A stretch of 64,000 nucleotides of DNA from Minisyncoccota bacterium. Its GTDB lineage: Bacteria > Patescibacteriota > Minisyncoccia > Phycocordibacterales > UBA9973. Where the stretch lies: contig JBAZRK010000001.1 of NCBI GenBank assembly GCA_041663005.1, forward strand, positions 222,734 to 286,733, in the 5' to 3' direction. Positions 45,864-61,574 of this stretch are shown here, piece after piece. Position numbers and translations under genes: made by a program. Every line of letters begins with the position of its first letter. The first letter of the stretch is position 1. The notes under the pieces were generated by a model that saw only the letters and a program-made list of their open reading frames with translations, had not been told where the DNA came from and did not search any database.

Positions 45864-46937
45864 TTATATCCCCTCTTTTTTGAGCTCTTCTACTGTTTCG
45901 CGAGCTTTGCGAGAGAGCTTGGAAGGGAGTTTGATGTTTAGTTTGATTAGGAGGTCACCGCGTCTGGTCTTGCCTACAGGCACACCCTTGCCTCGAACTC
46001 GGAGAATTTCATTGATACTTACACCTTCGGGAATAGTGACTTCAATTTCGCCGTCTAAAGTTTTAATAGGGTATTTTGTACCGAGGAGCGCGTCGCTTAA
46101 TTTCAAATCTAGGTCCATCACTAAATCGTTGCCTTCCCTTTTGAAAACCGGGTGCGGAGCAACATTTATCTTAATGTATAAATCTCCTGCCGTACCGCGC
46201 GAAATAGCTTCCCCCATACCGGTCATTCGAATCATTTCTCCATCGCGGATGCCGGATGGAATAACGATTGAAACTTCCTCCTCTCGGCGCAAGACACCTT
46301 TGCCCTTGCACTGTTCGCAGACCTCTTTCGGAACCTCACCCGAGCCATAGCAAGCCTCGCAGATTTTAGTATTGGCGATAGTTCCAAAAATTGTTTTCTT
46401 GGCTTCACGGATATGCCCCTGTCCATTGCACTGTTTGCAGGTTTCCATTTTGGACCCTACCTTCGCGCCTGTCCCCTTGCAGACTAAGCAATTGGAAGTT
46501 TTGGTGATTAAAATTTTTCGATTGGTTCCGAAAACTGCATCCGAAAAAGAAATTTGAATTTCGGTTGAAATATCGCGTCCTCGGCGAGCAGCGTTTCGAT
46601 TCATTCCCCCAGAGAAGAAATCGCTGAAAATGTCGTTGAGGTCGAAGTCCATTCCGCCGTTCTGGAAACCACTGAAGTCGAACCCTCCGAAGCCTTGCGC
46701 CCCGCCGTAACCACCACCCCCCATATTTTCGTACCCGGAGCCAAATTGATCATACTTCGAACGCTTCTCTTCGTCAGAGAGAACCTGGTAGGCTTCATTC
46801 ACTTCTTTGAACTTCTGCTCGTTACCGCCCTTTTTATCAGGGTGATATTTGTGCGCCATTTTATAGAAGGCTTTTTTAACCTCTTCCTTGGTAGCGCCCT
46901 TATTTATACCTAAAATTTCATAGTAATCTTTTGCCAT
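45864..46937 (-). CDS. dnaJ: Chaperone DnaJ
   Basis: J domain [13 protein letters not shown] region, four CxxCxGxG repeats. Confidence 0.9.
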
Positions 46938-46977
46938 AGTTTGTGTATTATACCCGCAGGTGAACTGGGGTCAAGTC

Positions 46978-48492
46978 CTATATCATCGGCTCGGCTTCGT
47001 GCGAGTTCTTGGCTTGGTGATCCGACTCTACCTGGTCGTAGGCTTCGTCTTCGGCCGTGGCATTTTCCGTGCCGTGAGTGTGACTTTTTGCTTTTCTTTC
47101 AATAATTGCCTTCTCCTCGGCGCTACGGATTATAGTTGCTTCTTCTTGGGCTATGAGTCGCGCAGCGGCGTCCTTAGGAATTGAATACTTGCGACGTGAA
47201 GCGGCAATTATCTCTTCTTGATACGACGGATGCGTCGGTGGCAATACACGCAAGGTCTCCGCCGAGAATGGATCGTAGGACTCTCCGTCGATTGTCATTT
47301 TGATATAAAATTCGGTCACCGCCAAGTTAATCATATCTTTAACATCGAAAAGGGGCGCGAACTCCGGCTTCATTTTGACTGCGTCTTCACCACCGATACG
47401 GAAAGTAATGATGCTTCCGCAATTTCCGAGCACCGCTTGGTGCACGCGAGTAATAATTTGACCGACGTACTGGTGCGCTACGGTAAGATTTAATCCATAT
47501 TTGCGAGCCTCAGAGAGAATGTTCTCGAAGGTTTGAGTCACAACGTTCTGGAACTCGTCCACGTATAGGTAAAAGTCTGTGCGGGCGGATTCATCCATCG
47601 AAGCGCGCTCCATCCCCGCTTGTTTAATCTTTGTCAGGAAAATAGAACCCAAGAATGAAGAATTTTCTTCACCTAGGCGCCCCTTCGAAATGTTAATGAG
47701 AACAATTTTTTTCTCATTCATCAACTTCGAAATATCAATCTTATTTTCCTTTTGTCCGAAAATATTGCGGAGCAACGGGTCTGACAGGAATTGCCCCAGC
47801 TTGTTGACCAGAGGAATGATGGCGTCCGTATCGAACTTCTCAGACCAGTCGGCGAATTCAATAGCGAAGAATCTCTTCACCATATCATCCGTAATGTATT
47901 CCACGACTTTCTGCCGGTAATTCCTGTCTGTCAGCATCGAAATCATCCCGCGCATCGTGGCGTGCGGGTAGTCGAGCAAGGCAAGACAGGTAAAGCGGAA
48001 CACGTGCTCGAGCCTAGGCGTCCAGTTGGCGCCGAATTGTTTCTGGAACACCTCGATCAATCCTTGGGTTAAAATAAATTTGAAAGCGGGATCAACGTTC
48101 GCCAGAGGGTTGAAGGATGCCGGATAATCCTTGTCAGTCGGGTCTATGATGCAGACATCGTCGATGCGATTTTTCGGCACGAAGTCAAGAATATTTTTAA
48201 ATTCGTCGCCGTGCGGGTCGATGAAGCATAGCCCGTGTCCATAATTTATATCCTGTCGAACTAGAAGCTCCAAGAGCTTCGACTTCCCCACCCCGGATTT
48301 TCCAATGATGTAGAGGTGTCTGCGGCGGTCGACGCGCTTGATACCGAAAATAAACTTTTTCTCTTCGAGTGAAGCGACATAGTTCGTACGACCGATGAAA
48401 GAAACTTCCGAAGGGTCAACTTTGCCGAAAACAGGCAGCTCCGGAGGCGGAGGTCCGTATTTTATTATTTGAACTCGATTTGGCTTAGGCAT
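46978..48492 (-). CDS. FtsK/HerA/VirD4-superfamily P-loop ATPase (paralog 1, soluble)
   Basis: Walker A GKSGVGKS, Walker B FYLYVDEFQN, ARKYGLNLTVAHQY. Confidence 0.7.
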   Translation of the reverse strand: MPKPNRVQIIKYGPPPPELPVFGKVDPSEVSFIGRTNYVASLEEKKFIFGIKRVDRRRHLYIIGKSGVGKSKLLELLVRQDINYGHGLCFIDPHGDEFKNILDFVPKNRIDDVCIIDPTDKDYPASFNPLANVDPAFKFILTQGLIEVFQKQFGANWTPRLEHVFRFTCLALLDYPHATMRGMISMLTDRNYRQKVVEYITDDMVKRFFAIEFADWSEKFDTDAIIPLVNKLGQFLSDPLLRNIFGQKENKIDISKLMNEKKIVLINISKGRLGEENSSFLGSIFLTKIKQAGMERASMDESARTDFYLYVDEFQNVVTQTFENILSEARKYGLNLTVAHQYVGQIITRVHQAVLGNCGSIITFRIGGEDAVKMKPEFAPLFDVKDMINLAVTEFYIKMTIDGESYDPFSAETLRVLPPTHPSYQEEIIAASRRKYSIPKDAAARLIAQEEATIIRSAEEKAIIERKAKSHTHGTENATAEDEAYDQVESDHQAKNSHEAEPMI

Positions 48493-48607
48493 TGATAGGT
48501 TATTTTATGGCGTAGTGAATTTTGGCGATGTTTATTAAAACGCGCCTGTCGCTTCGCCAAAATCTACTACCCCATTTTACCACAAATCCTAATAAACTTC
48601 CGCCTGA

Positions 48608-48646
48608 CCCGCCTCGACTCGCGTTGCTTCGTCGACGCGAGGCGGG
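48608..48646. other. GC-rich 9-bp-stem hairpin (cccgcctcg ... cgaggcggg) between Cys-rich gene A1 and the ATPase. No clean T-tract follows.
   Basis: Read directly. The inner part contains a SalI-type gtcgac palindrome. Confidence 0.35.
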
Positions 48647-48653
48647 TAACATT

Positions 48654-50378
48654 TTAGTAAACCTCTTGTTGGTAACAACGTTCACAATACACAATTTCCG
48701 GCCGCTCAGGCGCATAAGAAGTCTCAAATTCGACTTCACACTTCCCTTCGTGGTTAGGATGTTTTTTATCGCACATACATTCTCTGCGCCAAAGTCGGGG
48801 CGGATTGACCAACTTAAATCTCTCCTGGTGCCTGCATTCGAAACAGCTTCGGGGTACAGGTAAATTAAATTTTTTCAGGAATAAAAATTCGTTCTGGATA
48901 ATTTTATAGGGCCTTTTGCAAGTTTCACACTCAATGACATAATTGACTATATCATCACTTGTGTCGTGTATGTCCGGCGGTAAATCTTTCGTGGTGTGAG
49001 TTATGCGCTGCTCTGGTTGTTCACGTTCAATATAGTTGTACCCATTGCTTAAAATATCCGCTTTGGTCTGCGGAAAATAATCTTGCGCGATGGTCTCATT
49101 GTAGCCAAAAGGAGAAATATCAATAGGAAAATATTCGCCATATTTATAAATTCTTCCTTTTTTGTCTATATAGGGCATATCCTGCATATGCTTTATTATT
49201 TCTTCCCTGAGTTTTTCAAAATCGTCCTTGGAATATTCTTTGTTAAAAATGCAATAATTTTTATTGCGTAATCCGACACAGCCAAAAATATTATTGCACC
49301 CGTGGCAATTCAGGGAGTATTCCGCGTTCAGACATTCCCATATCGTCAATCCGAAAAGTTGCCGTGAGCCGTTTATGCCAGAATCCATTGCCTCGTATAG
49401 TAATTCTGTGCTGACCCCAACTCCATAGCCGTCGTAACTTGTATAAAGCCCGTGGACCGCATTGGTAGTAAATTTGCAGTCCTTTAGGTCTTCTGAGTCG
49501 AAACAATGATAAGAGTTTTTTGAATGAAGAATATTATCTCCTGAAACATTTGAAGAATTAAGAATGTTGGCAAACTTTCTCAAGCTTTTTAATCGGAGAC
49601 TTTCGAATTTTTTCTTGGCTTCTTTGAAACTCTCAAAATTCCCTATATTTAATTCGCTTAATTTTTTGAAATACTCGTCTTTTGTCAACTGCTCATTCCA
49701 CATGCAGTAAGATTTATTCCTGAGGTTGGTACAACCAAAACAATTTATGCAGTTTTTACAATCATATAAAAAGTAAGAACTGGTGCATGCTTCGGCGTTT
49801 TGTGAAAAGAAAGTTTCGTAACATTTCAAACTAGAAACATCTCCATAGGAAAACTGGCAATCTCTAGTAATAAACATGTCCATGGAGTCTTTGCAATTAT
49901 TGCACCGCGAGCCGTAAGTAACATTTTCGCCGTCCCAAGACGCGGAGACTAGATAAGCGTTCCTGAATTCACCTATATAATTACCGTATGAAGTATTGAC
50001 GCATTTCCCGATAAAAAGATTTGGATGCGGTACTTGCTCCATCAGGTCCCGAAATTGACCAAAAAATGGCTTAGAAAAGTCATACTCCCTTCCATATTCC
50101 GTAGGGTCCCACTGATCGCCCCACCAAATATCTCGTTCGTACACAATAAACGGAGAGTCGGCTGAAAAGCAACTTATGAGATTTTTCCCTGTCTTTCCGC
50201 ATTTATTGCGATGTAGCGTTCTTTCATTTCGCCAAGCCATCCTTCTTTGCATTCTACACTCCGGGCAAAATGTCGGCGGTGGGACCTTTATTTTTTCGTA
50301 AAAATTGAAATCCTCCGACTCGATTGTAAATTTACCGTTACAATTCTGACATATTACATTTTGTGATTTATACTCCAT
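48654..50378 (-). CDS. Cysteine-rich two-ribbon protein, subtype A, copy 1 (574 aa)
   Basis: N- and C-terminal CxxC-x~24-CxxCR zf-trcl-like ribbons (EDFNFYEKIKVPPPTFCPEC). Internal YDCKNCINCFGC..LRNKSYC repeats. Confidence 0.8.
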   Translation of the reverse strand: MEYKSQNVICQNCNGKFTIESEDFNFYEKIKVPPPTFCPECRMQRRMAWRNERTLHRNKCGKTGKNLISCFSADSPFIVYERDIWWGDQWDPTEYGREYDFSKPFFGQFRDLMEQVPHPNLFIGKCVNTSYGNYIGEFRNAYLVSASWDGENVTYGSRCNNCKDSMDMFITRDCQFSYGDVSSLKCYETFFSQNAEACTSSYFLYDCKNCINCFGCTNLRNKSYCMWNEQLTKDEYFKKLSELNIGNFESFKEAKKKFESLRLKSLRKFANILNSSNVSGDNILHSKNSYHCFDSEDLKDCKFTTNAVHGLYTSYDGYGVGVSTELLYEAMDSGINGSRQLFGLTIWECLNAEYSLNCHGCNNIFGCVGLRNKNYCIFNKEYSKDDFEKLREEIIKHMQDMPYIDKKGRIYKYGEYFPIDISPFGYNETIAQDYFPQTKADILSNGYNYIEREQPEQRITHTTKDLPPDIHDTSDDIVNYVIECETCKRPYKIIQNEFLFLKKFNLPVPRSCFECRHQERFKLVNPPRLWRRECMCDKKHPNHEGKCEVEFETSYAPERPEIVYCERCYQQEVY

Positions 50379-50385
50379 ATACTTT

Positions 50386-50658
50386 TTATTCTATAATTCT
50401 AACGAATTGTAGAATACTTTTCCCGCGCTTACTAAGCGTGTGCCGTACTATACTCCCTTCACTTCTCTTTTTTACTAGACCAGCGATGTACATTTTGTTT
50501 ATATGCGCAGAAATATTTTTAAAGTCCGAGTTTACGTCACTAGAAATTTCCTGAACTGATAAATTGGGTTTCTTGCCCAGTAGCTCAAGTATTTTCAACC
50601 TGTTGTGGTTCGCCACTCCCTTTAAAATCCTTTCTAGCTCTCGTTTTGACTTTTTCAT
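50386..50658 (-). CDS. ArsR/SmtB-family winged-helix transcriptional regulator
   Basis: VANHNRLKILELL recognition-helix region. 90 aa. Confidence 0.8.
   Translation of the reverse strand: MKKSKRELERILKGVANHNRLKILELLGKKPNLSVQEISSDVNSDFKNISAHINKMYIAGLVKKRSEGSIVRHTLSKRGKSILQFVRIIE
50389..50414. promoter_or_regulatory. Operator-like imperfect inverted repeat TTCTATAATTC-taac-GAATTGTAGAA, immediately upstream of the Cys-rich A1 start
   Basis: Near-duplicate of the arsR promoter palindrome. Overlaps the last codons of arsR. Confidence 0.4.
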
Positions 50659-50667
50659 AATTTATCT

Positions 50668-50693: not shown

Positions 50694-50704
50694 ATGCTCG
50701 TAAA

Positions 50705-52393
50705 TTAGTACACCTCTGCCTGATAACATTTCTCACAATATACTATCTCCGGACGTTCTGGAGCATAACCAGTTTTAATGGCTTTACTGCATTTAATGCA
50801 AGTACGGTCATACAAAAGCGGCGGGTTACGTAGGCTTAAACGTTCAGCGTGTCTACAGTTGGGACATAGACGAGGAAATGGTAAGCCCATACGTTTCAGA
50901 AAATCAAGCTCTGTTTTGATGGCCCGAAATGCACCAGTGCATTCGTGCTTACATGAATCTTTGTGTTCGCATCCAAAAACTTCATTTAGAATTTCTTGGT
51001 CAATGTCTTTTATGTCATCAGGTAAATCACCCGTTTTTAGGGTGATATCGTATTTCGGTTTCTCTATTCCATAATAAACAAAACCCTGTTTCTCCATCTC
51101 GTCTTTAGATAACGGGAAAAATTCCTGCGCGGCACTCACTTCGTATGGATGGGGCGCCAGGGCACTAGGGAAAAATTCACCGTATTCCCCTGTCATTTTC
51201 ATATGCTCAATTATTTTTGGTACCAAGGCCTCGTATTCTTCTTTGGTGTACTGTTTATTTAAAATACAATATTTTTTACCACGTAGTGAAATGCAACCAA
51301 AAAGGTATGCGGAACTTATACAAAATACGCAATAACTTGATTCTCGGAGCTCGGGGAAACAATGCGTGGAAAACTTTACATTGTATGCCCCAGTACCAAC
51401 AATGAGCGACTCATATATCAGCTCGGCATTGTTCCCAAAGTTGGAGTAGTCGTAACAATCTCTTACGGGACCATTTGTAACATTTTGGACCCACTTAGAA
51501 TCCTCCACCCCAACAACTCTATAGCAATCATGTGTATTTTTAGACTCATAAATATAGTCACCTGAAACATTTACGTTTTGTCGACTATGTATGAATTTTT
51601 GGGGATAGTTAAGCCAGTGTGCATATGCTTCGTGTTTTATTGTTTCAAAATTTTTATAAGAACCTAAATGTAATTCTTTTATTTTCTTTAAATATTCTTC
51701 GCGTTCATAAGGCTGGTTGAAAATATAATAAGATTTATTGCGCAAACCCACAGATCCAAAGCACGAATTGCAACCTACGCAATCTTTACAAAAAGTAAGC
51801 TCCTGAGAGCTTTCGCAGTCTACTGAGAAAAGAGTCTGGTAGCAAGTTATACAATTAACGTTGCCGTAAGAAAGCTCGCAGGAATTGGTCATATGACTTT
51901 CAAGTGACCCGCGAGAGCCGTGGTCCCAAATAAGATATGCGGAATCTTCTGTATTGGTAGCACCGCGCACGTAATAGCAGTTTTTGATATTGGTAGCGTT
52001 TGTGCAATAAGAGCAATGTACAGCTCTCTCCATAGATGTCGAAGGCCAGGGAACTTCATGCAAGAGTTCTTTAAATTGTTCAAAAAACGGGCGAGAGAAA
52101 TCAAACTCTCTACCGTATATCATTGGATCCCAACCATCCGAAAACCAGAAATCTCTATCGTAAATTTTTATTGGCGATTCTTCAGGAAGAAAAGAGAATA
52201 TTTTTTCTCCTGTACGAGCATCAGTCTTTTTAAAAACGTGCCAATCATTTCTCCATGTCATTCTACGTTGAAATCTGCACCGCGGACAAAATGTCGGCGG
52301 CGGAACTTGCATTTTTTCATAAAAATTAAAATCTTCGTTGGTTATTACGAAGTCTTTTTTGCAATTCTGGCAGGTTCTTGTTTCGGCTTTCAT
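50705..52393 (-). CDS. Cysteine-rich two-ribbon protein, subtype B, copy 1 (562 aa)
   Basis: Same architecture as above. N-terminus M.AETRTCQNCKKDF. CKDCVGCNSCFG repeat. Confidence 0.8.
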   Translation of the reverse strand: MKAETRTCQNCKKDFVITNEDFNFYEKMQVPPPTFCPRCRFQRRMTWRNDWHVFKKTDARTGEKIFSFLPEESPIKIYDRDFWFSDGWDPMIYGREFDFSRPFFEQFKELLHEVPWPSTSMERAVHCSYCTNATNIKNCYYVRGATNTEDSAYLIWDHGSRGSLESHMTNSCELSYGNVNCITCYQTLFSVDCESSQELTFCKDCVGCNSCFGSVGLRNKSYYIFNQPYEREEYLKKIKELHLGSYKNFETIKHEAYAHWLNYPQKFIHSRQNVNVSGDYIYESKNTHDCYRVVGVEDSKWVQNVTNGPVRDCYDYSNFGNNAELIYESLIVGTGAYNVKFSTHCFPELRESSYCVFCISSAYLFGCISLRGKKYCILNKQYTKEEYEALVPKIIEHMKMTGEYGEFFPSALAPHPYEVSAAQEFFPLSKDEMEKQGFVYYGIEKPKYDITLKTGDLPDDIKDIDQEILNEVFGCEHKDSCKHECTGAFRAIKTELDFLKRMGLPFPRLCPNCRHAERLSLRNPPLLYDRTCIKCSKAIKTGYAPERPEIVYCEKCYQAEVY

Positions 52394-52420: not shown

Positions 52421-54550
52421 TTATTCTAAGATTTTTCGGAGCACGTCTTCAGGAACTTCGGGCGCAGGCTTCGGCACAGGAGGAACTGGCACCTGGGAGC
52501 TCGCGCTAGGGACAGGAGCTTGCGGAGGCGCCACAGGAGGTGCTGGAGGTTTCGGTGGTGCCGGCGGCGGAACAATAGTTTTCTGAGATATAAGATTTTT
52601 AAGTTTATTCATTTCGTCAGGAGTTGCAGCGCGATCTTTGGAAGACCTCGGGTCCTGATTTACATCTCGCATTTTATTTTTCAAAACATCGAGGGAAATA
52701 GGAGCGGGCGTGGGTTTGGGTGCAGGCTGTGGTGTAGGAGAAACAGGCTTGGCCTGAGAGGCATCTTTGGTCATAACCTTAGAGAGCACGTCTTTGAGCG
52801 CTTGGTTGTCTCCGCTTCGCGGCTGTGGCCTTGGAGCCTGCGGTACATTGTTTCTTTCCTGCTTGATAGGCGGTTTTGGCGTAAAAACTTTCTTGACGTC
52901 ACTGACGACTCCGGGTTTGGCAACTGGGGCGTATGGCTTGTCTACACGTTCGGGGTGCCTGTCGTGAGTTTCTATTTTGCTTTCATCTGGCTTAAACTCT
53001 ATGCCTATGTCCGCCAGAGGTTGGAAAAATTCTGACTCATCGTGAATCGGTTCATCCTTTTGACCTTTCTCCACCTTAACCTCCCCAGACTTAATTTTTG
53101 CGATGCATTCCTTACAGTAAGCAGGGCGGCCAGGTTCTGGTTTAAATGGTACAGTGCGTTCTTGTTTACATAGTGAGCAGATTATTGGGAATTTTTCTCC
53201 GGTTGGTGACGGAGCGCTGTTTGGGACACTGTCGCCCAAGGACATCCCGCTCCAGTCGTTGATCTCACGCTCCACGATTTCCCTTGAACGACAGTAAAGT
53301 TCCCTAGAGGATTTGATAACTTCCTCTTCAATGTTTTTGTCCCCTCCCTTTACCATTGGCGGTAAGGTTTTCGCGGAAAAAGGTCGTGAGGTTATGCCGT
53401 CTATCATAAGCTTCATATAGACCTTGTAGTTCGGCAGGTTCACAATGTCCTGGGGAGTAAACTCAGGCTCGAATTCTTTTTCCAAAAATTCTGCATCGTC
53501 GGCACCAACCCTGAAAACAATCATAGTCCCTACGTTGCCGAACACCGCATCGCGGACAGCGGTACTCTTGTCGGAGATAAGCTGCGCGGTGTACTGGTGC
53601 GCCACCGTGAGGTTCAATCGGTATTTGCGGGCTTCGGAGAGAATCCCCGCGAAAGCGTCCGTCACGAAGTTTTGAAATTCGTCGACATATAGATAGAAGT
53701 CTCGTCGGCTTTCTTCCGGTATACGCACACGCTCCATCGCCGCAAGCTGAATCTTGGTAATTATCATACCTCCGAGCAGAGCGGAGTTGTCTTCCCCGAT
53801 TCTTCCTTTGGAAACGTTGACGAGGAAAATTTTCCCCTCGTTCATCATATCGAAAATATTTATTGTACTTTTCGATTGCCCCACGACGTTTCGAATTATC
53901 GAAGTTGAGAGAAACTGCCCGACTTTGTTCTGAATTGGGGCAATGGCTTCATTTCTGAATTTGTCTTGCCAAGCTTCGTATTCGTGAACCCAGAAAGCTT
54001 TAATCACCGGGTCTTTCAAATTTGAAATTATTTTCTGTCGATAGTCCTTGTCGACGAGCATTCTTGGAATTCCCAAAAGTGTCGTCCCCGGGGTGTCGAG
54101 CAAGGCGAGAATTGTATTGTTTAAAATGTATTCCATTCGGGCGCTCCAAGCATTGGCCCAAATTTTCGTAAAGATTCCCATAAGCCCGGACGCCACGAGG
54201 TGCTTGTACTGCGGGTCTACTAATTCCAAAACATTGAACCCTATGTGGTAGTCGGCATCAGCCGGATTGAAATAGATTACATCCTTCAAGCGATGGCGCG
54301 GGATAGCTCCGAGCACTGTCTCCACGTTTTCTCCGTGAGGGTCGACAAGGCAGACGCCTTCTCCGTTCTGGATGTTCTGGATAATCATATTGAACAATAG
54401 TACCGATTTACCGGTACCTGACTTCCCGAGAAGGTAAACGTGCTGACGCCTATCTTTGCGCTTAATACCAAAAAGCTGGTTTCTATCTCGGTAAGTGGTT
54501 AGCCCGATGTAGGTAACGTCTTTGTTTATAGGTATTTCCGCAATCTCCAT
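52421..54550 (-). CDS. FtsK/HerA/VirD4-superfamily P-loop ATPase (paralog 2) with a C-terminal zinc ribbon and Pro-rich tail. The start is re-set to the internal Met.
   Basis: Walker A GKSGTGKS, Walker B FYLYVDEFQN. CSLCK...RPAYCKEC ribbon. PAPPKPPAPP low-complexity tail. The track start at 54667 would read through the dnaK terminator. Confidence 0.7.
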   Translation of the reverse strand: MEIAEIPINKDVTYIGLTTYRDRNQLFGIKRKDRRQHVYLLGKSGTGKSVLLFNMIIQNIQNGEGVCLVDPHGENVETVLGAIPRHRLKDVIYFNPADADYHIGFNVLELVDPQYKHLVASGLMGIFTKIWANAWSARMEYILNNTILALLDTPGTTLLGIPRMLVDKDYRQKIISNLKDPVIKAFWVHEYEAWQDKFRNEAIAPIQNKVGQFLSTSIIRNVVGQSKSTINIFDMMNEGKIFLVNVSKGRIGEDNSALLGGMIITKIQLAAMERVRIPEESRRDFYLYVDEFQNFVTDAFAGILSEARKYRLNLTVAHQYTAQLISDKSTAVRDAVFGNVGTMIVFRVGADDAEFLEKEFEPEFTPQDIVNLPNYKVYMKLMIDGITSRPFSAKTLPPMVKGGDKNIEEEVIKSSRELYCRSREIVEREINDWSGMSLGDSVPNSAPSPTGEKFPIICSLCKQERTVPFKPEPGRPAYCKECIAKIKSGEVKVEKGQKDEPIHDESEFFQPLADIGIEFKPDESKIETHDRHPERVDKPYAPVAKPGVVSDVKKVFTPKPPIKQERNNVPQAPRPQPRSGDNQALKDVLSKVMTKDASQAKPVSPTPQPAPKPTPAPISLDVLKNKMRDVNQDPRSSKDRAATPDEMNKLKNLISQKTIVPPPAPPKPPAPPVAPPQAPVPSASSQVPVPPVPKPAPEVPEDVLRKILE

Positions 54551-54608: not shown

Positions 54609-56522
54609 TTACTTAGCTTCGTTCTGAGGAGGTTCCTCGCCTTCTTTCTTTTCCTTGAATTCCGCATCTTTGACTTCAGCGGGTTGTTCTTCGGGGGCTC
54701 CGGTTGGCGGAGTTTGAGCGCCAGCCTTGTTCATTGCCTCACCGATTTTGGACATTTCGGCAGACAATTCTTCGGTGGCCTTTTTGATAGCTTCGCCGTC
54801 TGTTCCATCTTTTACCCCACGAAGCGCAGTAATTTTCGCCTCCACTTCAGTTTTCAATTCTGCGGAAATTTTGTCTCCGGCGTCTTTCACCGCTTTTTCT
54901 GCTGTATAGATAATCATCTCGGCGGTGTTTTTCACTTCAGCATTTTCTTTCTTTTTCTTGTCTTCCTCGGCGTGCACTTCAGCGTCCGCTTGCATCTTTT
55001 TGATATCTTCTTCTTTGAGCCCGGAGCTTGCTTCAATTTTTATTGATTGAGTTTTACCTGAAGCCTTATCTTTCGCAGTAACATTCAATATTCCGTTGGC
55101 ATCCACATCGAATGACACCTCAATCTGCGGCATACCTCGAGGAGCTGGCGGAACACCGTCCAGGATAAATCGCCCGAGAGATTTGTTATCGCTTGCCATT
55201 GGGCGCTCTCCCTGCACAATGTGAATTTCTACAGAAGTCTGATTGTCGGCAGCTGTAGAGAAGGTCTGGGATTTACTGGACGGGATGGTGGTGTTTCTTT
55301 CCACTAATTTCGTAGCCACGCCTCCGAGAGTCTCAATTCCCAGAGAAAGCGGAATAACGTCGAGGAGGAGAACATCGCGTACATCTCCTTGCAAAACTCC
55401 GGCTTGCACCGCAGCACCAAGAGCGACGACTTCGTCAGGGTTAATGGTTAGGTTAGGAGCTTTGCCAAATACTTTTTTCACTTCTTCTACAATCTTCGGC
55501 ATCCTGGTCTGACCTCCGACCATCACTATTTCATTCATATCTTCCATCTTGAATCCAGAGGCAGCCATAGCTCGCTTGGTAATTTCGATAGAGCGAGTAA
55601 CGTATTCATCTGCTAGGGATTCTAACTGCGCCCGAGTCATCTTGAGCAATAAGTGCTGAGGACCTTCTGCTGTAGAAGTGATAAATGGAATGTTGATTTC
55701 GGATTCTATTGCAGTAGAGAGCTCAATTTTTGCTTTTTCTGCTGCTTCGTCTAAGCGTTGCAATGCGAGCTTGTCTCCGCGCACGTCCACTCCGGAAGTT
55801 TTCTTAAATTCTTCGGCAATCCAGTTAATTATCTTGTGGTCAATATCTCGTCCGCCCATATGGCTGTCTCCGTCTGTAGACTTAACTTCGATGACATCAT
55901 CTCCGATTTCGAGCACAGACACGTCGAATGTTCCGCCTCCGAAGTCGTAGACCACTATTTTCTCATTTTTCTTTTTATTAAATCCGTAAGCGAGGGCCGC
56001 CGCTGTAGGCTCGTTGATAATTCTTTTTACATCGAGTCCGGCAATTGCACCTGCGTCTTTCGTTGCCTTTCTTTGGGCATCGTTAAAGTATGCGGGAACA
56101 GTGATGACAGCTTCAGTAATTTTCTCGCCGAGTTTTGTTTCGACGTCAGTTTTAATTTTAGAAAGAATCATCGCCGACACTTCTTCCGGTCGCATCCACT
56201 TATCACCGATTTTTACTTCCACTCCGCCGTTGGCAGATTTTTGAATTTTGAAAGATGCATTCTTTAAATCTTTCTGCACTTCAGGATCTTCAAAATTGTG
56301 ACCCATAAAGCGCTTGATGCCGTACACTGTATTTTCCGGATTGGTCACCGCCTGCCTTTTCGCAAGTAAGCCTACAAGCCTGTCTCCATTTTTAGCAACG
56401 GCTACTACCGAAGGAGTCGTGCGGTTCCCTTCTACGTTTTCAATAATTTTCGGCACACCGCCCTCTATGACGGCTACCGCAGAATTTGTCGTACCCAAGT
56501 CTATTCCTATGATTTTTGACAT
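54609..56522 (-). CDS. dnaK: Chaperone DnaK (Hsp70)
   Basis: [32 protein letters not shown]. Confidence 0.95.
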
Positions 56523-56580: not shown

Positions 56581-56620
56581 AATTAGCAAGCTCTTCGCGG
56601 TCGCGAAATGGTTGCTAATT
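56581..56620. promoter_or_regulatory. Nested inverted repeat AATTAGCAA-gctc-TTCGCG-gt-CGCGAA-atgg-TTGCTAATT. The arms supply the -35 TTGCTA of both divergent promoters (dnaK and the PaaX-like gene).
   Basis: Read directly. 17-nt spacers lead to TATACT (dnaK side, minus strand) and TATAAT (plus side). The outer arms resemble CIRCE half-sites (TTAGCA/TGCTAA) but the spacing is non-canonical. Confidence 0.5.
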
Positions 56621-56646: not shown

Positions 56647-57168
56647 ATGTCAAGGAAAAAGGACTACTCGGGCAAAATAATCAAAATTTTAGGCAAAAAA
56701 CCGGCTACTTCTGTCGAAGAAATTTGGACTGGTTTCCCTGACCAGAATCGATATTCTGTAACTAGATCATTAAAGGGCCTTCGTGAGGCAGGTCTCATTG
56801 AGGCTCTTTCCTCCGCTCATTGTGAATATGCACGCCTCACAAAAGAAGGAAAAAAGAAAATGCATAGTCTAATTCTCGAGAGTAATACTGGCCTGGTGAA
56901 CACTTCCTGGGACGGATTTTGGAGGATAATTTTGCTCGACCTTCCAGAAGAAAGAAAAAGCGAGCGCGAAAGTCTGCGCTACCTACTAAAAAAAGCTGGC
57001 TTCGTCTGCCTAAAGAATTCTGCCTGGATCTCCCCTTTCCCATACGAGCATCTCTTCACAAATATTAAAAAAGATTTAGGCCTGACGACAGAAATGATGA
57101 TTATGGTCACCGACAAAATCGACGAAGAATCTAAAAAGGTTTTATTTCAAACCTTCGGGCAAAGTTAA
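56647..57168 (+). CDS. PaaX-like transcriptional regulator (wHTH plus PaaX_C-like domain)
   Basis: C-terminal WDGFW...LPEER...LRYLL.KAGF..L.NSAWISPFP matches the PaaX C-domain pattern (recalled from memory). Confidence 0.55.
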   Translation: MSRKKDYSGKIIKILGKKPATSVEEIWTGFPDQNRYSVTRSLKGLREAGLIEALSSAHCEYARLTKEGKKKMHSLILESNTGLVNTSWDGFWRIILLDLPEERKSERESLRYLLKKAGFVCLKNSAWISPFPYEHLFTNIKKDLGLTTEMMIMVTDKIDEESKKVLFQTFGQS

Positions 57169-57206
57169 TCTCCTTACATATGTAAGGATAGGTGTAAGGA
57201 GATTAA
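57166..57206. terminator. Convergent-gene hairpin: perfect 14-bp inverted repeat TTAATCTCCTTACA ... TGTAAGGAGATTAA, with an inner CCTTACAtaTGTAAGG palindrome
   Basis: Lies between the PaaX-like stop and the Cys-rich A2 stop. Confidence 0.45.
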
Positions 57207-58888
57207 TACACCTCTTTGTTGTAGCAACTTTCGCAATAAACTTTCTCCGGTCGCTCTGGAGAGTAGGGTGTTTCAAATTCATTCTGGCAACCTGAATTCA
57301 TACATTGTCTGTGCCAAAGCTTAAGTGGGTTCTTTTTACGTACACGTTCGCCGTGACGACAAAATGGACATAATGTGGGTAGTGGTAAATTAAATTTTTT
57401 ATAGAAGTTGTATTCAAATAGTGTAATCTTAAACGCCCTCGGGCAGTTGTCATCACACTTACCTCCATGTCCACACTCTATTACCTGTTCGAGGATTCCT
57501 AGGTCTGGTAAAATGTCGGGAATTGCAGAATTTTTTAATGTAATATCGTAATTTTTCTCCTCCAAAACTGCCCAATTGAAACCTTCTGCTCCAGCCCTTT
57601 CGGAATCAAGCGGAAAGTAGTCTTGGGCTTGAGTCTCGTTATATCCAAAAGGAGAATATTTCGCGGGGAAAAATTCTCCGTATTCTCCCAATTTCAGCAT
57701 CTGGTCGACTATCTCTTTTCGTAGTTTTAAGTAGTCTTCTTTCGAATATTGCTTATTGAAAATGCAGTAAGACTTATTGCGGAGACCTATGCACCCAAAA
57801 ATATTGTTACAGTCAAAACAATTATACGAATATTCAATATCGAAACCTCCCCATATGAGCGAAGAGAAATTTACTCGCTGGGCCTCAACACTGTGGGTGT
57901 CATAACAAAGCTCTGCGCCATCCCAAGCAATGGTCCCATCATAAATATCCTTACAGTTGCCCCACACCCTAAAGGAGTAGCGCACATTTTCTGAATCTCT
58001 CACATAAAAACCCTGATTTACAAAGCGTGCGTTCAGCACATCATCCCCTATCGCTTTTTCAGCCTTAGTAATCACCGCGTATTTCCTGGGAACTTTTAAC
58101 TTTAACTCTTCGAATTTTTCCTGGGTATTACTTAGTCCTGCGCGAGAATTCAATTTGAGTTCTTCTAATTTTTTAAAATATTCTTCCTTGGAGTATTGTT
58201 CGTTAAAAATACAGTAAGACTGACTGCGCAAACCTACACACCCAATACAATTGTTGCAATTACGACAGTCATATAAGTAATAAGAATCGACACACCCTTC
58301 GCAGTTCTGACTAAAAAATAAATTGTAGGATTTAACGCAATCAATTAGTTCGTAACAATACTCGGCAAAATTAGAACCATATAAATCAACAGAAAACTTG
58401 GTGTCCGTAACCGCACCAAACACATAAGACGAGTCCTCCACGCGCACAAAGCCCGCCGACCAATAAACATTCTTGGCATCGGTGCAATAGTTGGTATATT
58501 CACTATTTACGCCATTACGAGTTACGACATTCGGATGCGGTACCGCTTTTAAAAGTTCGTCGAATTGCTCGAAGAATGGACGTGTAAAATCATATTCACG
58601 ACCGAAAGACATAGGGTCCCACGCATCACTACGGAAATAGGCCTGTTCATAAACTTTATACGGAGCATCAGGTCGAAAAATAGAGAGCATTGGCTTGCCC
58701 GTGGCATCACACACCCGCCTGTGCCAGCTGCGCTCATTGCGCCAAGCCATACGTCTCTTCATCCTGCATTCAAAACAAAACGTCGGCGGTGGAACTTTTA
58801 TTTTTTCATAGAAACTAAAATCTTCACTTTCTATGGTGAAATCTTTTTTACAGTTTTGGCAGATTTTGTTTTCGTTTTTATATTCCAT
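57203..58888 (-). CDS. Cysteine-rich two-ribbon protein, subtype A, copy 2 (561 aa)
   Basis: N-terminus MEYKNENKICQNCKKDFTIESEDFSFYEKIKVPPPTFC, near-identical to copy A1. YDCRNCNNCIGC repeat. Confidence 0.8.
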   Translation of the reverse strand: MEYKNENKICQNCKKDFTIESEDFSFYEKIKVPPPTFCFECRMKRRMAWRNERSWHRRVCDATGKPMLSIFRPDAPYKVYEQAYFRSDAWDPMSFGREYDFTRPFFEQFDELLKAVPHPNVVTRNGVNSEYTNYCTDAKNVYWSAGFVRVEDSSYVFGAVTDTKFSVDLYGSNFAEYCYELIDCVKSYNLFFSQNCEGCVDSYYLYDCRNCNNCIGCVGLRSQSYCIFNEQYSKEEYFKKLEELKLNSRAGLSNTQEKFEELKLKVPRKYAVITKAEKAIGDDVLNARFVNQGFYVRDSENVRYSFRVWGNCKDIYDGTIAWDGAELCYDTHSVEAQRVNFSSLIWGGFDIEYSYNCFDCNNIFGCIGLRNKSYCIFNKQYSKEDYLKLRKEIVDQMLKLGEYGEFFPAKYSPFGYNETQAQDYFPLDSERAGAEGFNWAVLEEKNYDITLKNSAIPDILPDLGILEQVIECGHGGKCDDNCPRAFKITLFEYNFYKKFNLPLPTLCPFCRHGERVRKKNPLKLWHRQCMNSGCQNEFETPYSPERPEKVYCESCYNKEVY

Positions 58889-58894
58889 ATTTTA

Positions 58895-58916
58895 GATCTA
58901 CGCTATAGCGTAGATC
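58895..58916. promoter_or_regulatory. Perfect 22-bp palindrome GATCTACGCTATAGCGTAGATC, ending 6 nt upstream of the A2 start codon
   Basis: Read directly and verified to be its own reverse complement. Confidence 0.45.
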
Positions 58917-58921
58917 GATTT

Positions 58922-60619
58922 TTAATACACTTCTTTGTTGTAGCAACTTTCGCAATAAACTTTCTCCGGCCGCTCTGGAGAATATGGAGTTTCAAATTCG
59001 TTAGGGCATTTTGCGGCATGGCCGTGAGCTTCGACTGCACATTTGCAATTACTATGCCAAAGACGGCGCGGCGGACGCAAACCAAATCTCCTTCTGTATC
59101 TGCAGTTCGGGCACTTTCGCGGTATTGGAATTTTCTCTTTTTGATAAAACAAAAACTCGTTTCGGGTAATATTGTAATTTTTTGAACATTCTACGCAAGC
59201 TAAAATTTCGTTCAGAATGGTTTCCGGCACATCTTCTATTTTATCAGGAATTTTTTCGCTCGTGATAGTTTCCTTGCCCAAAGTACCGCCCAAGTTTTCT
59301 TCCCAATGCCAACCTTTGGCTAAAACTTCGTTTTTTGTCATTGGCTCATACATATTGCCCTGCGTTTCGTTGTAGTAAATAGGCGCAATTTGAGGTGGAA
59401 AAAATTCGCCATATTCCCCTGTTCTCTTCATATGCTCAATGATTTTTTCTTTTAGCGCCAGATAGTCTGCTTTAGAATATTTTTTATTAAAAATCATGTA
59501 TTCGCCCTTTTTCACACTCACGCAACCAAAAAGATTCTGGCTATTTTGGCAAGTGTCGGAATAATCAATATTCATGTTGTCGTAAGATAAATGGCAAAAA
59601 TGGCAATTGGAAATACGAGCACTCCCCTGACACTCGTAGCTCAATTCAACATGGTCGCCCACGTGATATAAATCCATAGAATCCTTTACCCCATCCGGAC
59701 TGCAGATAAGAAATTTAGAATTCTCCCCCATTAGTGTCTCAAATGATAATGCCACGTTCCTGCAGTCAAAAATCATGCTACCTATAGAGTTAATATTTCT
59801 TTCACTTACAGTGTAACGGTGTACGGCCTCTTCCCGCATAATCTTTTCAAATTCTTTCTCTAGGCCTTGGCGTACCGTAAACGAAGAGAGATCGTATTCT
59901 TTTATCTTTTTTAAATATTCTTCCCGAGTATACTGTTTATTGCGGAATACATAACTTTTGCCCCGGAGGTTTGTAGACATAAAGCAATTATTACATCCGC
60001 GACAATCGAAACAGTAAAAACAAGAAGAGCAATCTTTTATGAATTTCCCATACTGACATTCATAAGAAATACGAGAGTCCGTAACTTCGTACAATCTTTC
60101 TCCTTTCTCGTAAATGTAGCTGCAATCTATTAAATCTCGCGAGTTCCAAATTAATGTGCTGTATAACGCATTCTCGTTGTAGAAGGCAGAAAAGGTGAGG
60201 TAAACATTTTTATTATCACTCGAATGATTGGTATATTCAGAATTTTCACTATTTTTATTTAGGAGTGCCATGCGGGGTACGTCATGCTGGAGTTCGGCAA
60301 ACTGTTCAAAAAATGGGCGAGAAAAATCAAAATCGCGGCCGTAAGAAGTCGCATCCCAGCCATCGCCCCACCAGCACGAATTGCAATACACTTTATAGGG
60401 CTTATTTTGGGAATAAATCGTCACCGTACTCTTGCCGCACAAGTCGCACGACCTACGGTATAAATTGCGTTCGTTCCTCCACGCATAACGCCGCAACTGC
60501 CGACAGCCTGGACACCAAGTCGGCGGTGGGACTTTAATCTTCTCATAAAAATTAAAGTCTTCACTATCAATCGTGAAATCTTGTTTACAGTTTTGACAAT
60601 TTCTGGTTTCTGGTCTCAT
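58922..60619 (-). CDS. Cysteine-rich two-ribbon protein, subtype B, copy 2 (565 aa)
   Basis: N-terminus MRPETRNCQNCKQDF. CFYCFDCRGCNNC repeat. The C-terminal 28 aa are identical to copy A2. Confidence 0.8.
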   Translation of the reverse strand: MRPETRNCQNCKQDFTIDSEDFNFYEKIKVPPPTWCPGCRQLRRYAWRNERNLYRRSCDLCGKSTVTIYSQNKPYKVYCNSCWWGDGWDATSYGRDFDFSRPFFEQFAELQHDVPRMALLNKNSENSEYTNHSSDNKNVYLTFSAFYNENALYSTLIWNSRDLIDCSYIYEKGERLYEVTDSRISYECQYGKFIKDCSSCFYCFDCRGCNNCFMSTNLRGKSYVFRNKQYTREEYLKKIKEYDLSSFTVRQGLEKEFEKIMREEAVHRYTVSERNINSIGSMIFDCRNVALSFETLMGENSKFLICSPDGVKDSMDLYHVGDHVELSYECQGSARISNCHFCHLSYDNMNIDYSDTCQNSQNLFGCVSVKKGEYMIFNKKYSKADYLALKEKIIEHMKRTGEYGEFFPPQIAPIYYNETQGNMYEPMTKNEVLAKGWHWEENLGGTLGKETITSEKIPDKIEDVPETILNEILACVECSKNYNITRNEFLFYQKEKIPIPRKCPNCRYRRRFGLRPPRRLWHSNCKCAVEAHGHAAKCPNEFETPYSPERPEKVYCESCYNKEVY

Positions 60620-60688
60620 ATCATCATACTAGTACGCTAGTGTCTGTTCTAGGCGATATTTTGTTTATAACACTCAAAAAGATGTCGA

Positions 60689-60973
60689 TTATAAAGAGTT
60701 ATCCACATCGCTGTTTTTATTGTGAAAAAACCGGAATGGCATATTATCCACCAGAATGGGGTTATCAGAAAATAGCCTGCGAAGAGCTGAAACTCCTTTT
60801 CTAAATTTACCAAATACGGAAAAAGCAAAATGCTGCTTAACGCGACATCCAAAGCATTGCTCCGGGATTTTCAATCCTACTTTTTCATACAAAAGTAAAT
60901 CGCCAGAATCTATTATAAATTCTTCTTTACAATCAGCGCAAATTTTACTCTCCGTTTTTGAATTCATAGACAT
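60689..60973 (-). CDS. Stand-alone single zf-trcl-like zinc-ribbon protein (~90 aa). A miniature relative of the Cys-rich family.
   Basis: CADCKEEFIIDSGDLLLYEKVGLKIPEQCFGCR. Its start region overlaps the grpE 3' end. Confidence 0.5.
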   Translation of the reverse strand: MSMNSKTESKICADCKEEFIIDSGDLLLYEKVGLKIPEQCFGCRVKQHFAFSVFGKFRKGVSALRRLFSDNPILVDNMPFRFFHNKNSDVDNSL

Positions 60974-61535
60974 TCACCCGAGCGGCACGCATTACGCGCT
61001 CACCGAGCTTATAGCCTTTCTGCACAACTTCGGCAACTTTATGGTCAAGGTCTTTCTGGTCCGTGGCCACCATATCTATAGACTGGTGAATGTTGGGGTC
61101 GAAAGCTTCACCCTCTTCACCTATCGGCTTCACGCCATATTCCTCGAATATGCCATTCATTTGCGCATAAATATACTCCACGCCCTTGCGCCAAGTAGCG
61201 TCAACTTTCTCCCAGGCCTCCTTGTTGGCGAAAGCCATATTGAAACTGTCTATAACCGTCAGGAAACGAGTAAGTATTCGCTCGCGCATCGCTTCGGAAA
61301 AGACGCCCTTGCGGTCATCTTCCTGCTTTTTATAGTTGGCAAAGTCGGCCCGCTCTTTCTGCCAGCCTGTTAGATACTCTTCTTTCTCTTTTTTGGCTTG
61401 TTTTAGGTCAGCGCGAAGCTTTTTGAGGGTTTTTTTCACGTCTTCTTCGCCGTCGTCATTAAATTCAAACTCGACAACATCATCTTCCGCCTCAGGCTCT
61501 TCTTTTTTCTTATCTTCATCGTTCATATGGCTCAT
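60945..61535 (-). CDS. grpE: Nucleotide exchange factor GrpE. The start is re-set to the ATG downstream of the terminator.
   Basis: GrpE coiled-coil and beta domain (NPQDAV-like HQSIDMV). The track's TTG start at 61562 lies inside the terminator hairpin. Confidence 0.85.
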   Translation of the reverse strand: MSHMNDEDKKKEEPEAEDDVVEFEFNDDGEEDVKKTLKKLRADLKQAKKEKEEYLTGWQKERADFANYKKQEDDRKGVFSEAMRERILTRFLTVIDSFNMAFANKEAWEKVDATWRKGVEYIYAQMNGIFEEYGVKPIGEEGEAFDPNIHQSIDMVATDQKDLDHKVAEVVQKGYKLGERVMRAARVNVYEFKNGE

Positions 61536-61543
61536 ATTAGCAT

Positions 61544-61574
61544 AAAAAAATCCCTCTTCCAAGAGGGATTTTTT
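61544..61574. terminator. Bidirectional intrinsic terminator between rpsI and grpE
   Basis: aaaaaaa tccctctt cc aagaggga tttttt. Confidence 0.7.

Follow-up and report, generated by a model that had tools for sequence, protein, structure and literature searches.

Anchor-less coupling-protein ATPases and an unnamed Cys-rich protein family in the Hsp70 locus of a Paceibacteria lineage

The closest described relatives of the ATPases considered here are the type IV coupling proteins (T4CPs) VirD4, TraD and TrwB, whose genes often lie beside relaxase genes (bioRxiv 10.1101/2025.01.22.634366). The same preprint counts 5,713 VirD4-type homologs in 2,918 of 3,035 genomes of the Candidate Phyla Radiation (CPR), about two per genome; 148 of the 5,713 are near virB4, and the authors suggest exaptation. 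The present analysis concerns a 64,000-nt stretch of contig JBAZRK010000001.1 from a Minisyncoccota bacterium, an ultra-small CPR member of the Paceibacteria class (the window, whose positions serve as coordinates throughout), examined through its open reading frame (ORF) listing and family searches with hidden Markov models. Two T4CP-type ATPases (ATP1 and ATP2) and four Cys-rich proteins (Cys-A1, Cys-A2, Cys-B1 and Cys-B2) are encoded there among the heat-shock genes grpE, dnaK and dnaJ. The minus-strand order is grpE, a gene remnant, Cys-B2, Cys-A2, dnaK with its terminator, ATP2, Cys-B1, an ArsR-like gene, Cys-A1, ATP1 and dnaJ, and a PaaX-like gene lies on the plus strand between Cys-A2 and dnaK. 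The order and coordinates of all twelve genes agree with an initial annotation made from the sequence alone, as do the roughly 12 kb of extra DNA that interrupt grpE-dnaK-dnaJ, 7.7 kb in the dnaK-dnaJ interval and 4.4 kb in the grpE-dnaK interval.

The ATPases resemble T4CPs in a P-loop domain bearing the Walker motifs A (GKSGxGKS) and B (YLYVDEF), in a match that covers the nucleotide-binding and all-alpha regions, in 25-39% identity to plasmid coupling proteins and in being encoded beside candidate protein partners. Unlike T4CPs, ATP1 and ATP2 have no N-terminal transmembrane (TM) anchor, no VirB4, VirB3, VirB6 or relaxase gene lies near them, and they occur as two chromosomal paralogs per genome (plus a third, ATP3, which is DUF8128-anchored) under housekeeping-level constraint; ATP2 additionally bears a zinc finger and a Pro-rich tail. 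ATP1, ATP2 and ATP3 are very probably among the orphan VirD4-type homologs of the preprint, whose available text was found to make no mention of Cys-rich neighbours, bracketing, a missing anchor, a zinc-finger paralog or a position in the Hsp70 locus.

Partial likenesses to three other systems are also evident. Both curated cut-offs for CxxC-x17-CxxC fingers (zf_Tbcl_2, PF23477, and TIGR04272) are passed by the ATP2 finger, and the N- and C-terminal fingers of the Cys-rich proteins resemble these models and the treble-clef model zf_Tbcl (PF13451); unlike such fingers, those of the Cys family stay below the cut-offs and make up less than 20% of the protein, the remaining ~450 residues having no known relative. 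A small ArsR/SmtB-fold winged helix-turn-helix (wHTH) gene amid Cys-rich genes recalls the SmtB-SmtA and ArsR pairs, but this regulator has no metal ligands, fails to reach the family cut-off and is missing in most related loci, and nothing metallothionein-like is seen in the Cys-rich proteins. In the ClpB-DnaK bi-chaperone system, a functional analogy only, a ring ATPase is encoded or regulated with DnaK, DnaJ and GrpE. By that analogy, a threading motor cooperating with Hsp70 would account for the locus; unlike ClpB, the ATPases have no AAA+ homology, and the FtsK/HerA/T4CP fold class is unrelated to Clp/Hsp100.

The interpretation favoured here, which is tentative and falls somewhat short of probable, is that the ATPases are functionally paired with the Cys-rich family. 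Such a pairing is suggested because adjacency recurs in several arrangements and lineages, because one motor paralog and the Cys-rich proteins share a finger type, and because the motor is highly constrained whereas its multi-copy partner varies in the middle. As the ATPases are by homology ring translocases or substrate receptors, the Cys-rich proteins would most simply be their clients or adaptors.

Two ATPases related to type IV coupling proteins

ATP1 and ATP2 are 46% identical over 427 aa (E 2e-134), and no further copy of the ATPase or Cys family was found elsewhere in the window. Both pass the Pfam cut-offs of TrwB_AAD_bind (38.3 bits for ATP2 and 21.9 bits; cut-off 20.5), T4SS-DNA_transf (31.4 for ATP2 and 21.6 bits; cut-off 20.1), TraG-D_C and DUF87 (31 and 26 bits), and both fall far under the TraD/VirD4 equivalog cut-offs of TIGR03743, TIGR03754 and NF045973 (55.7 against 366; 40 against 648; 45.5 against 250 bits). 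Walker A lies at residue 64 of ATP1 and at about residue 42 of ATP2, and the Walker A and B residues are invariant among ATP1 homologs. ATP2 most likely starts at the ATG at 54550 rather than at 54667, because the longer ORF overlaps the end of dnaK and the terminator and because relatives have Walker A near residue 42. No hydrophobic 19-residue window or TM segment was found in either protein. The initial annotation had called the pair HerA/FtsK/VirD4-like. Homology to VirD4/TraD-type coupling proteins holds, whereas the HerA part does not: HerA models match solely over the Walker B/sensor stretch, the HerA match in the PDB is at E 0.19, and no NurA-like neighbour was found.

Outside the CPR, ATP1 is 39% identical by tblastn to a lone plasmid gene in Sulfitobacter, and across 83% of its length it shares 30% identity with a coupling protein on an Embleya plasmid. 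The latter lies in a genuine type IV secretion system (T4SS) cluster with PrgI, a VirB4-like ATPase and a replication-relaxation protein. These Embleya proteins were used as jackhmmer queries against 161 loci fetched from relatives (designated by L numbers), comprising 81 Cys-seeded loci (79 from 185,579 species genomes and two by exact look-up) and 80 PaaX-seeded metagenome loci chosen independently of Cys genes. The coupling protein retrieved 76 ATPase ORFs, the complete set of BLAST-classified ATPase genes in these loci, and its VirB4-, PrgI- and relaxase-like neighbours gave zero matches, within the limited sensitivity of single-seed queries. Queries and recurrent-neighbour families together revealed no VirB4, VirB3/PrgI, relaxase or integrase in these loci.

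Strong constraint on the motors is evident in the clade that shares the window's arrangement (see below), where identity to the window is 80-95% for ATP1, 80-93% for DnaK, 63-78% for ATP2 (full length), 55-80% for DnaJ, 67-82% for GrpE, 55-78% for the PaaX-like protein and 31-50% for most Cys paralogs. ATP1 is thus as conserved as DnaK. This conservation bears on the idea that the locus is the remnant of a conjugative or other mobile element inserted in a chaperone operon. Such an origin would suit the T4CP homology, which extends to plasmid-borne relatives, the G+C content of the Cys-rich genes (0.38-0.40 at 48000-52000 and 57000-61000, against 0.47 for dnaK and the ATPases and a window mean of ~0.44), and the toxin-antitoxin and IS genes at the dnaK-ATP2 junction of relatives. 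However, it is essentially refuted by the absence of T4SS, relaxase and integrase genes, by the DnaK-level purifying constraint on ATP1 and by a position that is stable across the clade; the missing membrane anchor and the absence of the Cys family from the 50,697 phage records searched also speak against it. The initial annotation had left room for a known conjugative element; no conjugation partners accompany the ATPases in the 161 loci.

The two motors differ at their C-termini. ATP2 has a CxxC-x17-CxxC finger that scores 39 bits with zf_Tbcl_2 (PF23477, cut-off 27) and 41.2 bits with TIGR04272 (cut-off 36); it is present in every complete ATP2 ortholog, at about residues 455-480, and in no ATP1 ortholog. 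ATP1 ends in a disordered acidic tail (46978-47060) whose final EAEPMI is nearly invariant across homologs and is a possible docking motif. This acidic tail with its conserved hydrophobic tip resembles the tail of F TraD, which binds TraM.

The third paralog, ATP3 (~790-920 aa), combines a TM helix at its N-terminus with a DUF8128 domain (PF26449) and is widespread in Paceibacteria (for example, L071:5213-7585, L040:13059-15824 and L164-L166). Its usual context is a PMT_2 glycosyltransferase, a small gene, ATP3, PGK and a giant surface protein of 2,400-3,200 aa. ATP3 was considered as a bridge to T4SS and rejected, since this context holds no T4SS genes and a Cys gene adjoins ATP3 in one of three independently seeded loci. 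A stand-alone DUF8128-like membrane protein is encoded directly upstream of ATP2 in two loci (L068:5091-6470 and L081:6497-7879), and another (L077:4918-6303) lies at the upstream edge of the module, with Cys-gene fragments between it and ATP1.

The Cys-rich multi-zinc family

Paralogy of the interrupting genes, as proposed in the initial annotation, extends from the ATPases to the Cys-rich proteins and in both cases far exceeds chance. The four share 37-45% mutual identity by tblastn (E 1e-110 to 1e-157); aligned with MAFFT, Cys-A1 shares 40-48% identity with each of its three paralogs. The family is large: among the 8,000 candidates scored, at least 6,612 clusters at 90% identity match at E <= 1e-5, and 2,273 representatives at 50% identity match at E <= 1e-30. 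None of the 6,612 clusters carries a name beyond 'hypothetical' or a precomputed Pfam domain. Nearly all of the best 150 matches are 500-610 aa long and align in a single near-full-length stretch; the few exceptions look truncated or split. Matches with a named source come from Paceibacteria-class lineages (Nomura-, Staskawicz-, Lipton-, Giovannoni-, Sungii- and Niyogibacteria, Minisyncoccia) or from generically labelled metagenome-assembled genomes. Three contigs with a Paceibacteria-type locus that are labelled Burkholderiales, Bacteroidales and Gammaproteobacteria (L051, L006 and L059) are probably mis-binned. Two loci (L001:12107-14137 and L043:12089-14119) also encode a 676-aa protein with 37 Cys and a signal-peptide-like N-terminus, unrelated to the family, which comes after a Cys-family gene and an 89-aa gene.

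Each protein consists of an N-terminal Cys4 treble-clef-like finger, two Cys-rich beta-solenoid-like segments and two C-terminal Cys4 fingers. The solenoid-like segments are centred on CxxCxxCxxC and GC-GLR-KSYCIFN-QYSKEEY motifs, and the presence of the latter motif twice per protein indicates an internal duplication. The window proteins have 30-33 Cys each; across 286 sequences, 18 Cys columns reach 90% conservation or more and fall into groups of 4+4(+4)+4+4. In Cys-A2 numbering the conserved residues are C10/13/38/41, C208/211/214/217 (the CxxCxxCxxC motif), C366/375, C472/482/507/510 and C529/534/552/555, with C199 and C357 conserved to ~85%. Both ends and the two core motifs are conserved, the Cys4 spacing of the fingers to more than 94%, and residues 141-200 and 241-360 are variable. 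Against models of the zf_Tbcl and zf_Tbcl_2 type, the Cys-rich proteins and a 94-aa 'mini' ORF discussed below remain sub-threshold (14.7-19.3 bits, cut-off 24; 15.3-18.4 bits, cut-off 27); the C-termini match PF23477/TIGR04272, the models passed by the ATP2 finger, likewise below threshold. Because the ATP2 finger is of the same type as the C-terminal finger of the Cys-rich proteins, a shared ligand or a homotypic contact is suggested.

Family searches, which the initial annotation had proposed for all eight proteins, assigned the ATPases and the PaaX-like and ArsR-like proteins to families and left the Cys-rich proteins without a Pfam family. An AlphaFold2 (AF2) model of Cys-A2 from 12 sequences has a predicted local distance difference test score (pLDDT) of 78 and a predicted template-modelling score of 0.78. 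No fold relative was found with this model, its BFVD matches are solely small zinc ribbons (phage zinc-ribbon and HNH-type proteins), and the family sequence profile has no match in the PDB. PADLOC found no defence system among the cassette proteins, with just weak mad8/HerA matches for the ATPases (<=56 bits) and zero for the Cys-rich proteins. A literature search found no publication on the family.

The BFVD matches are among the observations that would fit a nucleic-acid machine, in which DNA or RNA would be pumped by the ATPases, with the Cys-rich proteins as partners that bind nucleic acids through zinc fingers or mimic DNA, and the position at Hsp70 would be a frozen accident. Coupling proteins and FtsK/HerA relatives translocate DNA, and weak matches to CedD and TraD models were seen. 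Moreover, the terminal fingers of the Cys-rich family carry a basic net charge of +4 to +7, their second CxxC being followed by Arg-rich helices, and the solenoid middle is acidic (pI 4.3-5.4). Such a machine is nevertheless unlikely, given that these soluble proteins are acidic overall (pI 5.6-6.8), that 4-10 paralogs of identical architecture would be unusual for a DNA-processing factor, and that neither family searches nor the 161 loci yielded a nuclease, relaxase, primase or recombinase motif or neighbour.

The Cys content itself, about 30 residues per protein with at least five possible Cys4 sites, could instead point to a metal or redox store, either with metallothionein/SmtA-like buffering under the ArsR/SmtB-type gene or as an Hsp33-like redox-switched holdase that hands clients to DnaK. 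The CxxC-x17-CxxC finger binds zinc experimentally in small Methanosarcina (M. mazei) proteins (PMC12704099), and the Hsp70 genes are close by. A gene for CutA1 (divalent-cation tolerance) adjoins the ATPases or Cys arrays in five loci (L002:6658-6963, L047:863-1168, L063:10144-10485, L064:12145-12450 and L081:16911-17216). The ArsR-like gene, taken at first for an ArsR/SmtB metal-sensor regulator of the module, does not bear out this role. Its product passes HTH_5 (32 bits) and falls below the NF033788 cut-off (48.1 against 55 bits), its chain ends shortly past the wing, and it is devoid of Cys and of the metal-ligand residues typical of such regulators (CxC in alpha-3N or D/H/H/E in alpha-5). 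The metal-sensor reading fails because both Cys and an alpha-5 metal site are lacking. Besides the window's own copy, homologs occur in just 5 of the 81 Cys-seeded loci, and the gene is a sporadic lineage-specific passenger. Cys also accounts for only ~5% of residues in a large, conserved, folded scaffold, and family, PDB-profile and fold searches found no similarity to Hsp33 or metallothioneins. As a store or holdase would also leave the ATPases unexplained, this alternative is very unlikely.

Gene neighbourhoods and the link to Hsp70

The association of Cys-rich and ATPase genes that was noticed in the window recurs elsewhere. Among the 81 Cys-seeded loci, 48 have at least two Cys genes and 20 at least four, an ATPase is present in 27 and a chaperone gene in 18, and 79 are co-directional; 25 of 40 ATPase genes abut a same-strand Cys gene within 400 bp. 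The core unit is ATP2-(Cys)n-ATP1, a Cys array bracketed by the ATPases with a copy number from 0 to ~7. The ATPase-Cys linkage is found in at least three arrangements. The first, (grpE-Cys-Cys)-PaaX<>dnaK-ATP2-Cys-Cys-ATP1-dnaJ(-Cys), has its dnaK-to-dnaJ portion in the window and in L025, L031, L052, L054, L079, L086, L105, L115, L131, L148 and L150. The second, DUF8128-ATP2-Cys x4-5-(CutA1)-ATP1, is found in Staskawiczbacteria (L068 and L081), and the third is ATP1-Cys-Cys-x-ATP2 (L018, L042 and L077). In other Paceibacteria the unit lies away from chaperone genes (L002, L034, L042, L064, L068, L077 and L081); the chaperone-free blocks of L034, L042, L068, L077 and L081 belong to Staskawiczbacteria-type genomes.

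Interleaving with chaperone genes is likewise not peculiar to the window and characterizes a whole clade. Forty PaaX-seeded loci were informative in that they could be scored for which classified gene follows dnaK, or for the lack of one over 3 kb. ATP2 comes next in 25 of them (DnaK 80-91% and GrpE 67-82% identical to the window's), dnaJ directly follows dnaK in 11 that form a sister clade (DnaK 72-81%, GrpE 43-53%), and neither is found in 4. In the sister clade, with grpE-PaaX-dnaK-dnaJ, 10 kb around the locus are free of ATPase genes. The insert with the ATPases is accordingly a derived character shared by a single clade, in which the number of Cys genes varies from 0 (L113, L116, L141 and L047) to 2 between ATP2 and ATP1, and from 0 to 4 between grpE and PaaX. 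Because some relatives keep ATP2 and ATP1 adjacent without a Cys gene, the ATPases, and not the Cys genes, are the constant part of the insert. The dnaK-ATP2 gap ranges in relatives from 58 bp to 2.9 kb; this gap with its inserted genes, together with the terminator after dnaK, indicates that dnaK and ATP2 are separate transcription units and that the region is not one operon. The dnaK-ATP2 junction is an insertion hot spot (L085, L095, L109, L118 and L160), hosting RelE/HigA-type toxin-antitoxin pairs, an IS200/Y1-type transposase and other small genes.

The initial annotation saw one functional module tied to Hsp70. The ATPase-Cys unit and its conserved synteny in one clade stand, whereas the link to Hsp70 is clade-specific, with units elsewhere and a sister clade that lacks the insert. 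A stronger version of that idea is an obligate Hsp70-coupled machine, in which the ATPases, the Cys-rich proteins and DnaK/DnaJ/GrpE act in one pathway, for example as a ClpB-like unfoldase or disaggregase with DnaK, or in DnaK-assisted loading or unloading of zinc proteins. ATP1 lies directly upstream of dnaJ in 12 of 14 dnaJ loci, at gaps of 8-150 bp, and ATP2 is the next module gene after dnaK in 25 of the 40 informative PaaX-seeded loci. Furthermore, the layout is kept down to ~80% DnaK identity, three separate gaps of the one locus hold Cys genes, and ATP2 and ATP1 retain their place in the dnaK-dnaJ interval in relatives that have no Cys gene there. An obligate machine is nonetheless doubtful. 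It is at odds with the seven loci in which the module has no chaperone neighbours, with the contiguous dnaK-dnaJ of the sister clade, with the dnaK terminator and the entry of mobile genes at the dnaK-ATP2 junction, and with flank synteny that reflects shared descent.

The pairing of motors and Cys-rich partners favoured above can be extended into a mechanism. An old, Paceibacteria-specific module would comprise two P-loop ATPases that derive from T4CPs (VirD4/TraD/TrwB) and lost the membrane anchor. It would have lodged in the grpE-(PaaX-like)-dnaK-dnaJ heat-shock locus in the ancestor of one clade, and Cys-family copies would later have spread into the grpE-PaaX gap and downstream of dnaJ. 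The ATPases would form hexameric receptor or translocase motors that bind the Cys-rich proteins by their conserved zinc-finger ends in order to thread, unfold or deliver them, on the model of coupling proteins, whose genes neighbour those of the protein substrates they handle. What is specific to each paralog would then reside in the variable solenoid middle. Co-location with Hsp70 probably provides co-expression and help with the folding or unfolding of large metal-dependent proteins, and this proximity would be dispensable, the module working elsewhere in other lineages. Physical interaction, the direction of handling and any role of Hsp70 are the conjectural parts of this scheme. A functional tie of the module to Hsp70 is plausible; Hsp70 synteny and the tight ATP1-dnaJ spacing are real in one clade and not general, and may reflect co-regulation or history alone.

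Several observations weigh against this proposal. A promoter-like site and terminator of its own at dnaK, with the variable dnaK-ATP2 gap, separate the chaperone gene from the module. The synteny is contributed mostly by a single clade, where flanking agmatinase, CysS and ribosomal protein genes are collinear too, so that shared descent explains much of it. An enzyme or a structural complex, as opposed to cargo, would equally suit a family as uniform in architecture and as rich in invariant residues as the Cys family. Nucleic-acid binders typically have zinc ribbons, and DNA is also pumped by motors of the T4CP/FtsK type. Finally, an AF2 model of ATP1 from a 16-sequence alignment reaches a pLDDT of 51, which leaves a ring or pore without structural support. 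A more far-reaching version, in which the near-universal orphan T4CP homologs of the CPR are receptor and threading motors that have the Cys-rich family as clients and work with DnaK/DnaJ/GrpE, is improbable. Such motors would either feed unfolded proteins to a relaxase-less CPR T4SS for host injection or form a new Hsp70-coupled remodelling machine with a T4CP/FtsK-type, and not an AAA+, ring.

The chaperone locus, its regulators and wider significance

DnaK, a type I DnaJ and GrpE are all present, DnaK and DnaJ above curated cut-offs and GrpE at family level. That dnaK carries its own terminator, as first annotated, is supported by a clean hairpin, AAAAAGCCCCGCAAGGGGCTTTTT, at 54605-54582. 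The PaaX-like protein passes PaaX_M, scores 30.9 against a cut-off of 264.6 bits with TIGR02277 and has no C-terminal domain (PaaX_C). It had been counted as a member of the inserted cassette; because its gene is paired with dnaK in clades both with and without the ATPase insert, it belongs instead to an ancestral grpE-PaaX<>dnaK-dnaJ locus. Upstream of dnaK, at 56618-56583, the window has the palindrome TTAGCAAC-CA-TTCGCG-AC-CGCGAA-GAG-CTTGCTAA. A related palindrome, approximately ACAAGTATTTCGTG-GTC-CACGAAATACTTGT with arms of 13-14 bp, is conserved at this position in over 30 loci (PaaX-dnaK intergenic regions, L025-L163), where it sits between a TATCATATATACT box and dnaK in insert-bearing and insert-free clades alike. 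No canonical CIRCE element was found in the window. The conserved palindrome before dnaK and the lack of a canonical CIRCE make the PaaX-like protein a candidate heat-shock repressor, and protein and palindrome a candidate heat-shock regulator-operator pair for Paceibacteria.

The mini ORF had been read as a small zinc-ribbon gene, and this was rejected in favour of a decayed fifth Cys-family gene. Over its first 64 aa it shares 56% identity with the N-terminal end of an intact grpE-proximal relative (L041_6604_8271). Residues 510-548 of that relative match the plus strand at 60670-60786, a 117-bp inversion (64% identity, E 5e-14), and the original last eight codons and stop are kept on the minus strand at ~60676-60650 (ECYKQNIA*). 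About 16 relatives carry an intact divergent family member next to grpE.

Table 1. Features of the chaperone locus in the window and the evidence for each
Feature	Positions	Strand	Evidence
193-aa polytopic membrane protein; start overlaps dnaJ stop	45281..45862	-	No Pfam/NCBIfam match
dnaJ, type I with zinc-finger domain; 40 bp downstream of ATP1	45864..46937	-	TIGR02349 387 bits, above cut-off
ATP1, anchor-less T4CP-type ATPase, 504 aa, acidic C-terminal tail	46978..48492	-	DUF87, TraG-D_C, TrwB_AAD_bind and T4SS-DNA_transf above Pfam cut-offs
Cys-A1, Cys-rich multi-zinc protein, 574 aa, 33 Cys	48654..50378	-	Paralog alignment
Small ArsR/SmtB-fold wHTH protein, 90 aa, no Cys	50386..50658	-	HTH_5 32 bits
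Cys-B1, Cys-rich multi-zinc protein, 562 aa, 31 Cys	50705..52393	-	Paralog alignment
ATP2, anchor-less T4CP-type ATPase, 709 aa, zinc finger and Pro-rich tail	52421..54550	-	Pfam/TIGR matches above cut-offs
Intrinsic-terminator-like hairpin right after dnaK stop codon	54582..54605	-	10-bp stem with 5 GC pairs, loop of 4
dnaK (Hsp70)	54609..56522	-	NF001413 933 bits and TIGR02350 899 bits, both above cut-offs
Operator-like nested palindrome	56583..56618		Between promoter-like site 56653-56624 and dnaK start
PaaX-like wHTH and Cas2-like (PaaX_M) regulator, 173 aa, divergent from dnaK	56647..57168	+	PF20803, 70.7 bits
Cys-A2, Cys-rich multi-zinc protein, 561 aa, 30 Cys	57203..58888	-	Paralog alignment; AF2 model
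Cys-B2, Cys-rich multi-zinc protein, 565 aa, 32 Cys	58922..60619	-	Paralog alignment; positional orthologs across the clade 69-75% identical
Remnant of fifth Cys-family gene, including 94-aa mini ORF at 60689-60973	60650..60973	-	Homology to L041_6604_8271
grpE, Hsp70 nucleotide-exchange factor	60945..61562	-	GrpE models E ~1e-26, under equivalog cut-offs

Several neighbours recur around these genes. The family of the 193-aa membrane protein also follows dnaJ, or a post-dnaJ Cys gene, in nine loci, and its overlap with the dnaJ stop suggests that it may be co-transcribed with dnaJ. A cysteinyl-tRNA synthetase gene (CysS; 42965-44329, plus strand) lies ~1.5 kb past the end of dnaJ and recurs in 13 related loci; its place beside a locus with four ~30-Cys proteins is probably plain synteny. 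An ABC exporter of ~590 aa with fused TM and nucleotide-binding domains is in or beside the Cys arrays of about six insert-clade relatives (L054:8125-9921, L142:1694-3490, L103:3781-5547, L090:6701-8542, L049:1363-3132 and L131) and absent from the window. The other recurrent neighbours are housekeeping only: an ABC-ATPase cluster (including UvrA and ABC exporters), CysS, RecR, SecDF, GDH, TrmD and ComEC. An Rfam search of the window gave no match.

The ATPase superfamily and its orphan status in the CPR are already known, the latter from the preprint. The Cys-rich family, its bracketing by two anchor-less coupling-protein paralogs and their lodging in the Hsp70 locus were not found in the libraries and literature searched. 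A family that comprises over 2,000 clusters is thereby flagged for annotation, and a candidate heat-shock regulator-operator pair emerges as a by-product where the dnaK promoter lacks a canonical CIRCE element.

The CPR, or Patescibacteria, makes up a large share of bacterial diversity and is mostly host-dependent, and, according to the preprint, nearly all of its members keep about two VirD4-type ATPases without an assigned role, apart from T4SS genes. For one major class, the locus shows these ATPases to be anchor-less, conserved at the level of DnaK, bracketing arrays of a huge unnamed family and, in one clade, situated inside the Hsp70 locus. If the motors did feed a T4SS, Paceibacteria would gain in the Cys-rich proteins their first candidates for T4SS substrates or effectors. 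The locus gives the first concrete candidate partners for the orphan motor ATPases of the CPR.

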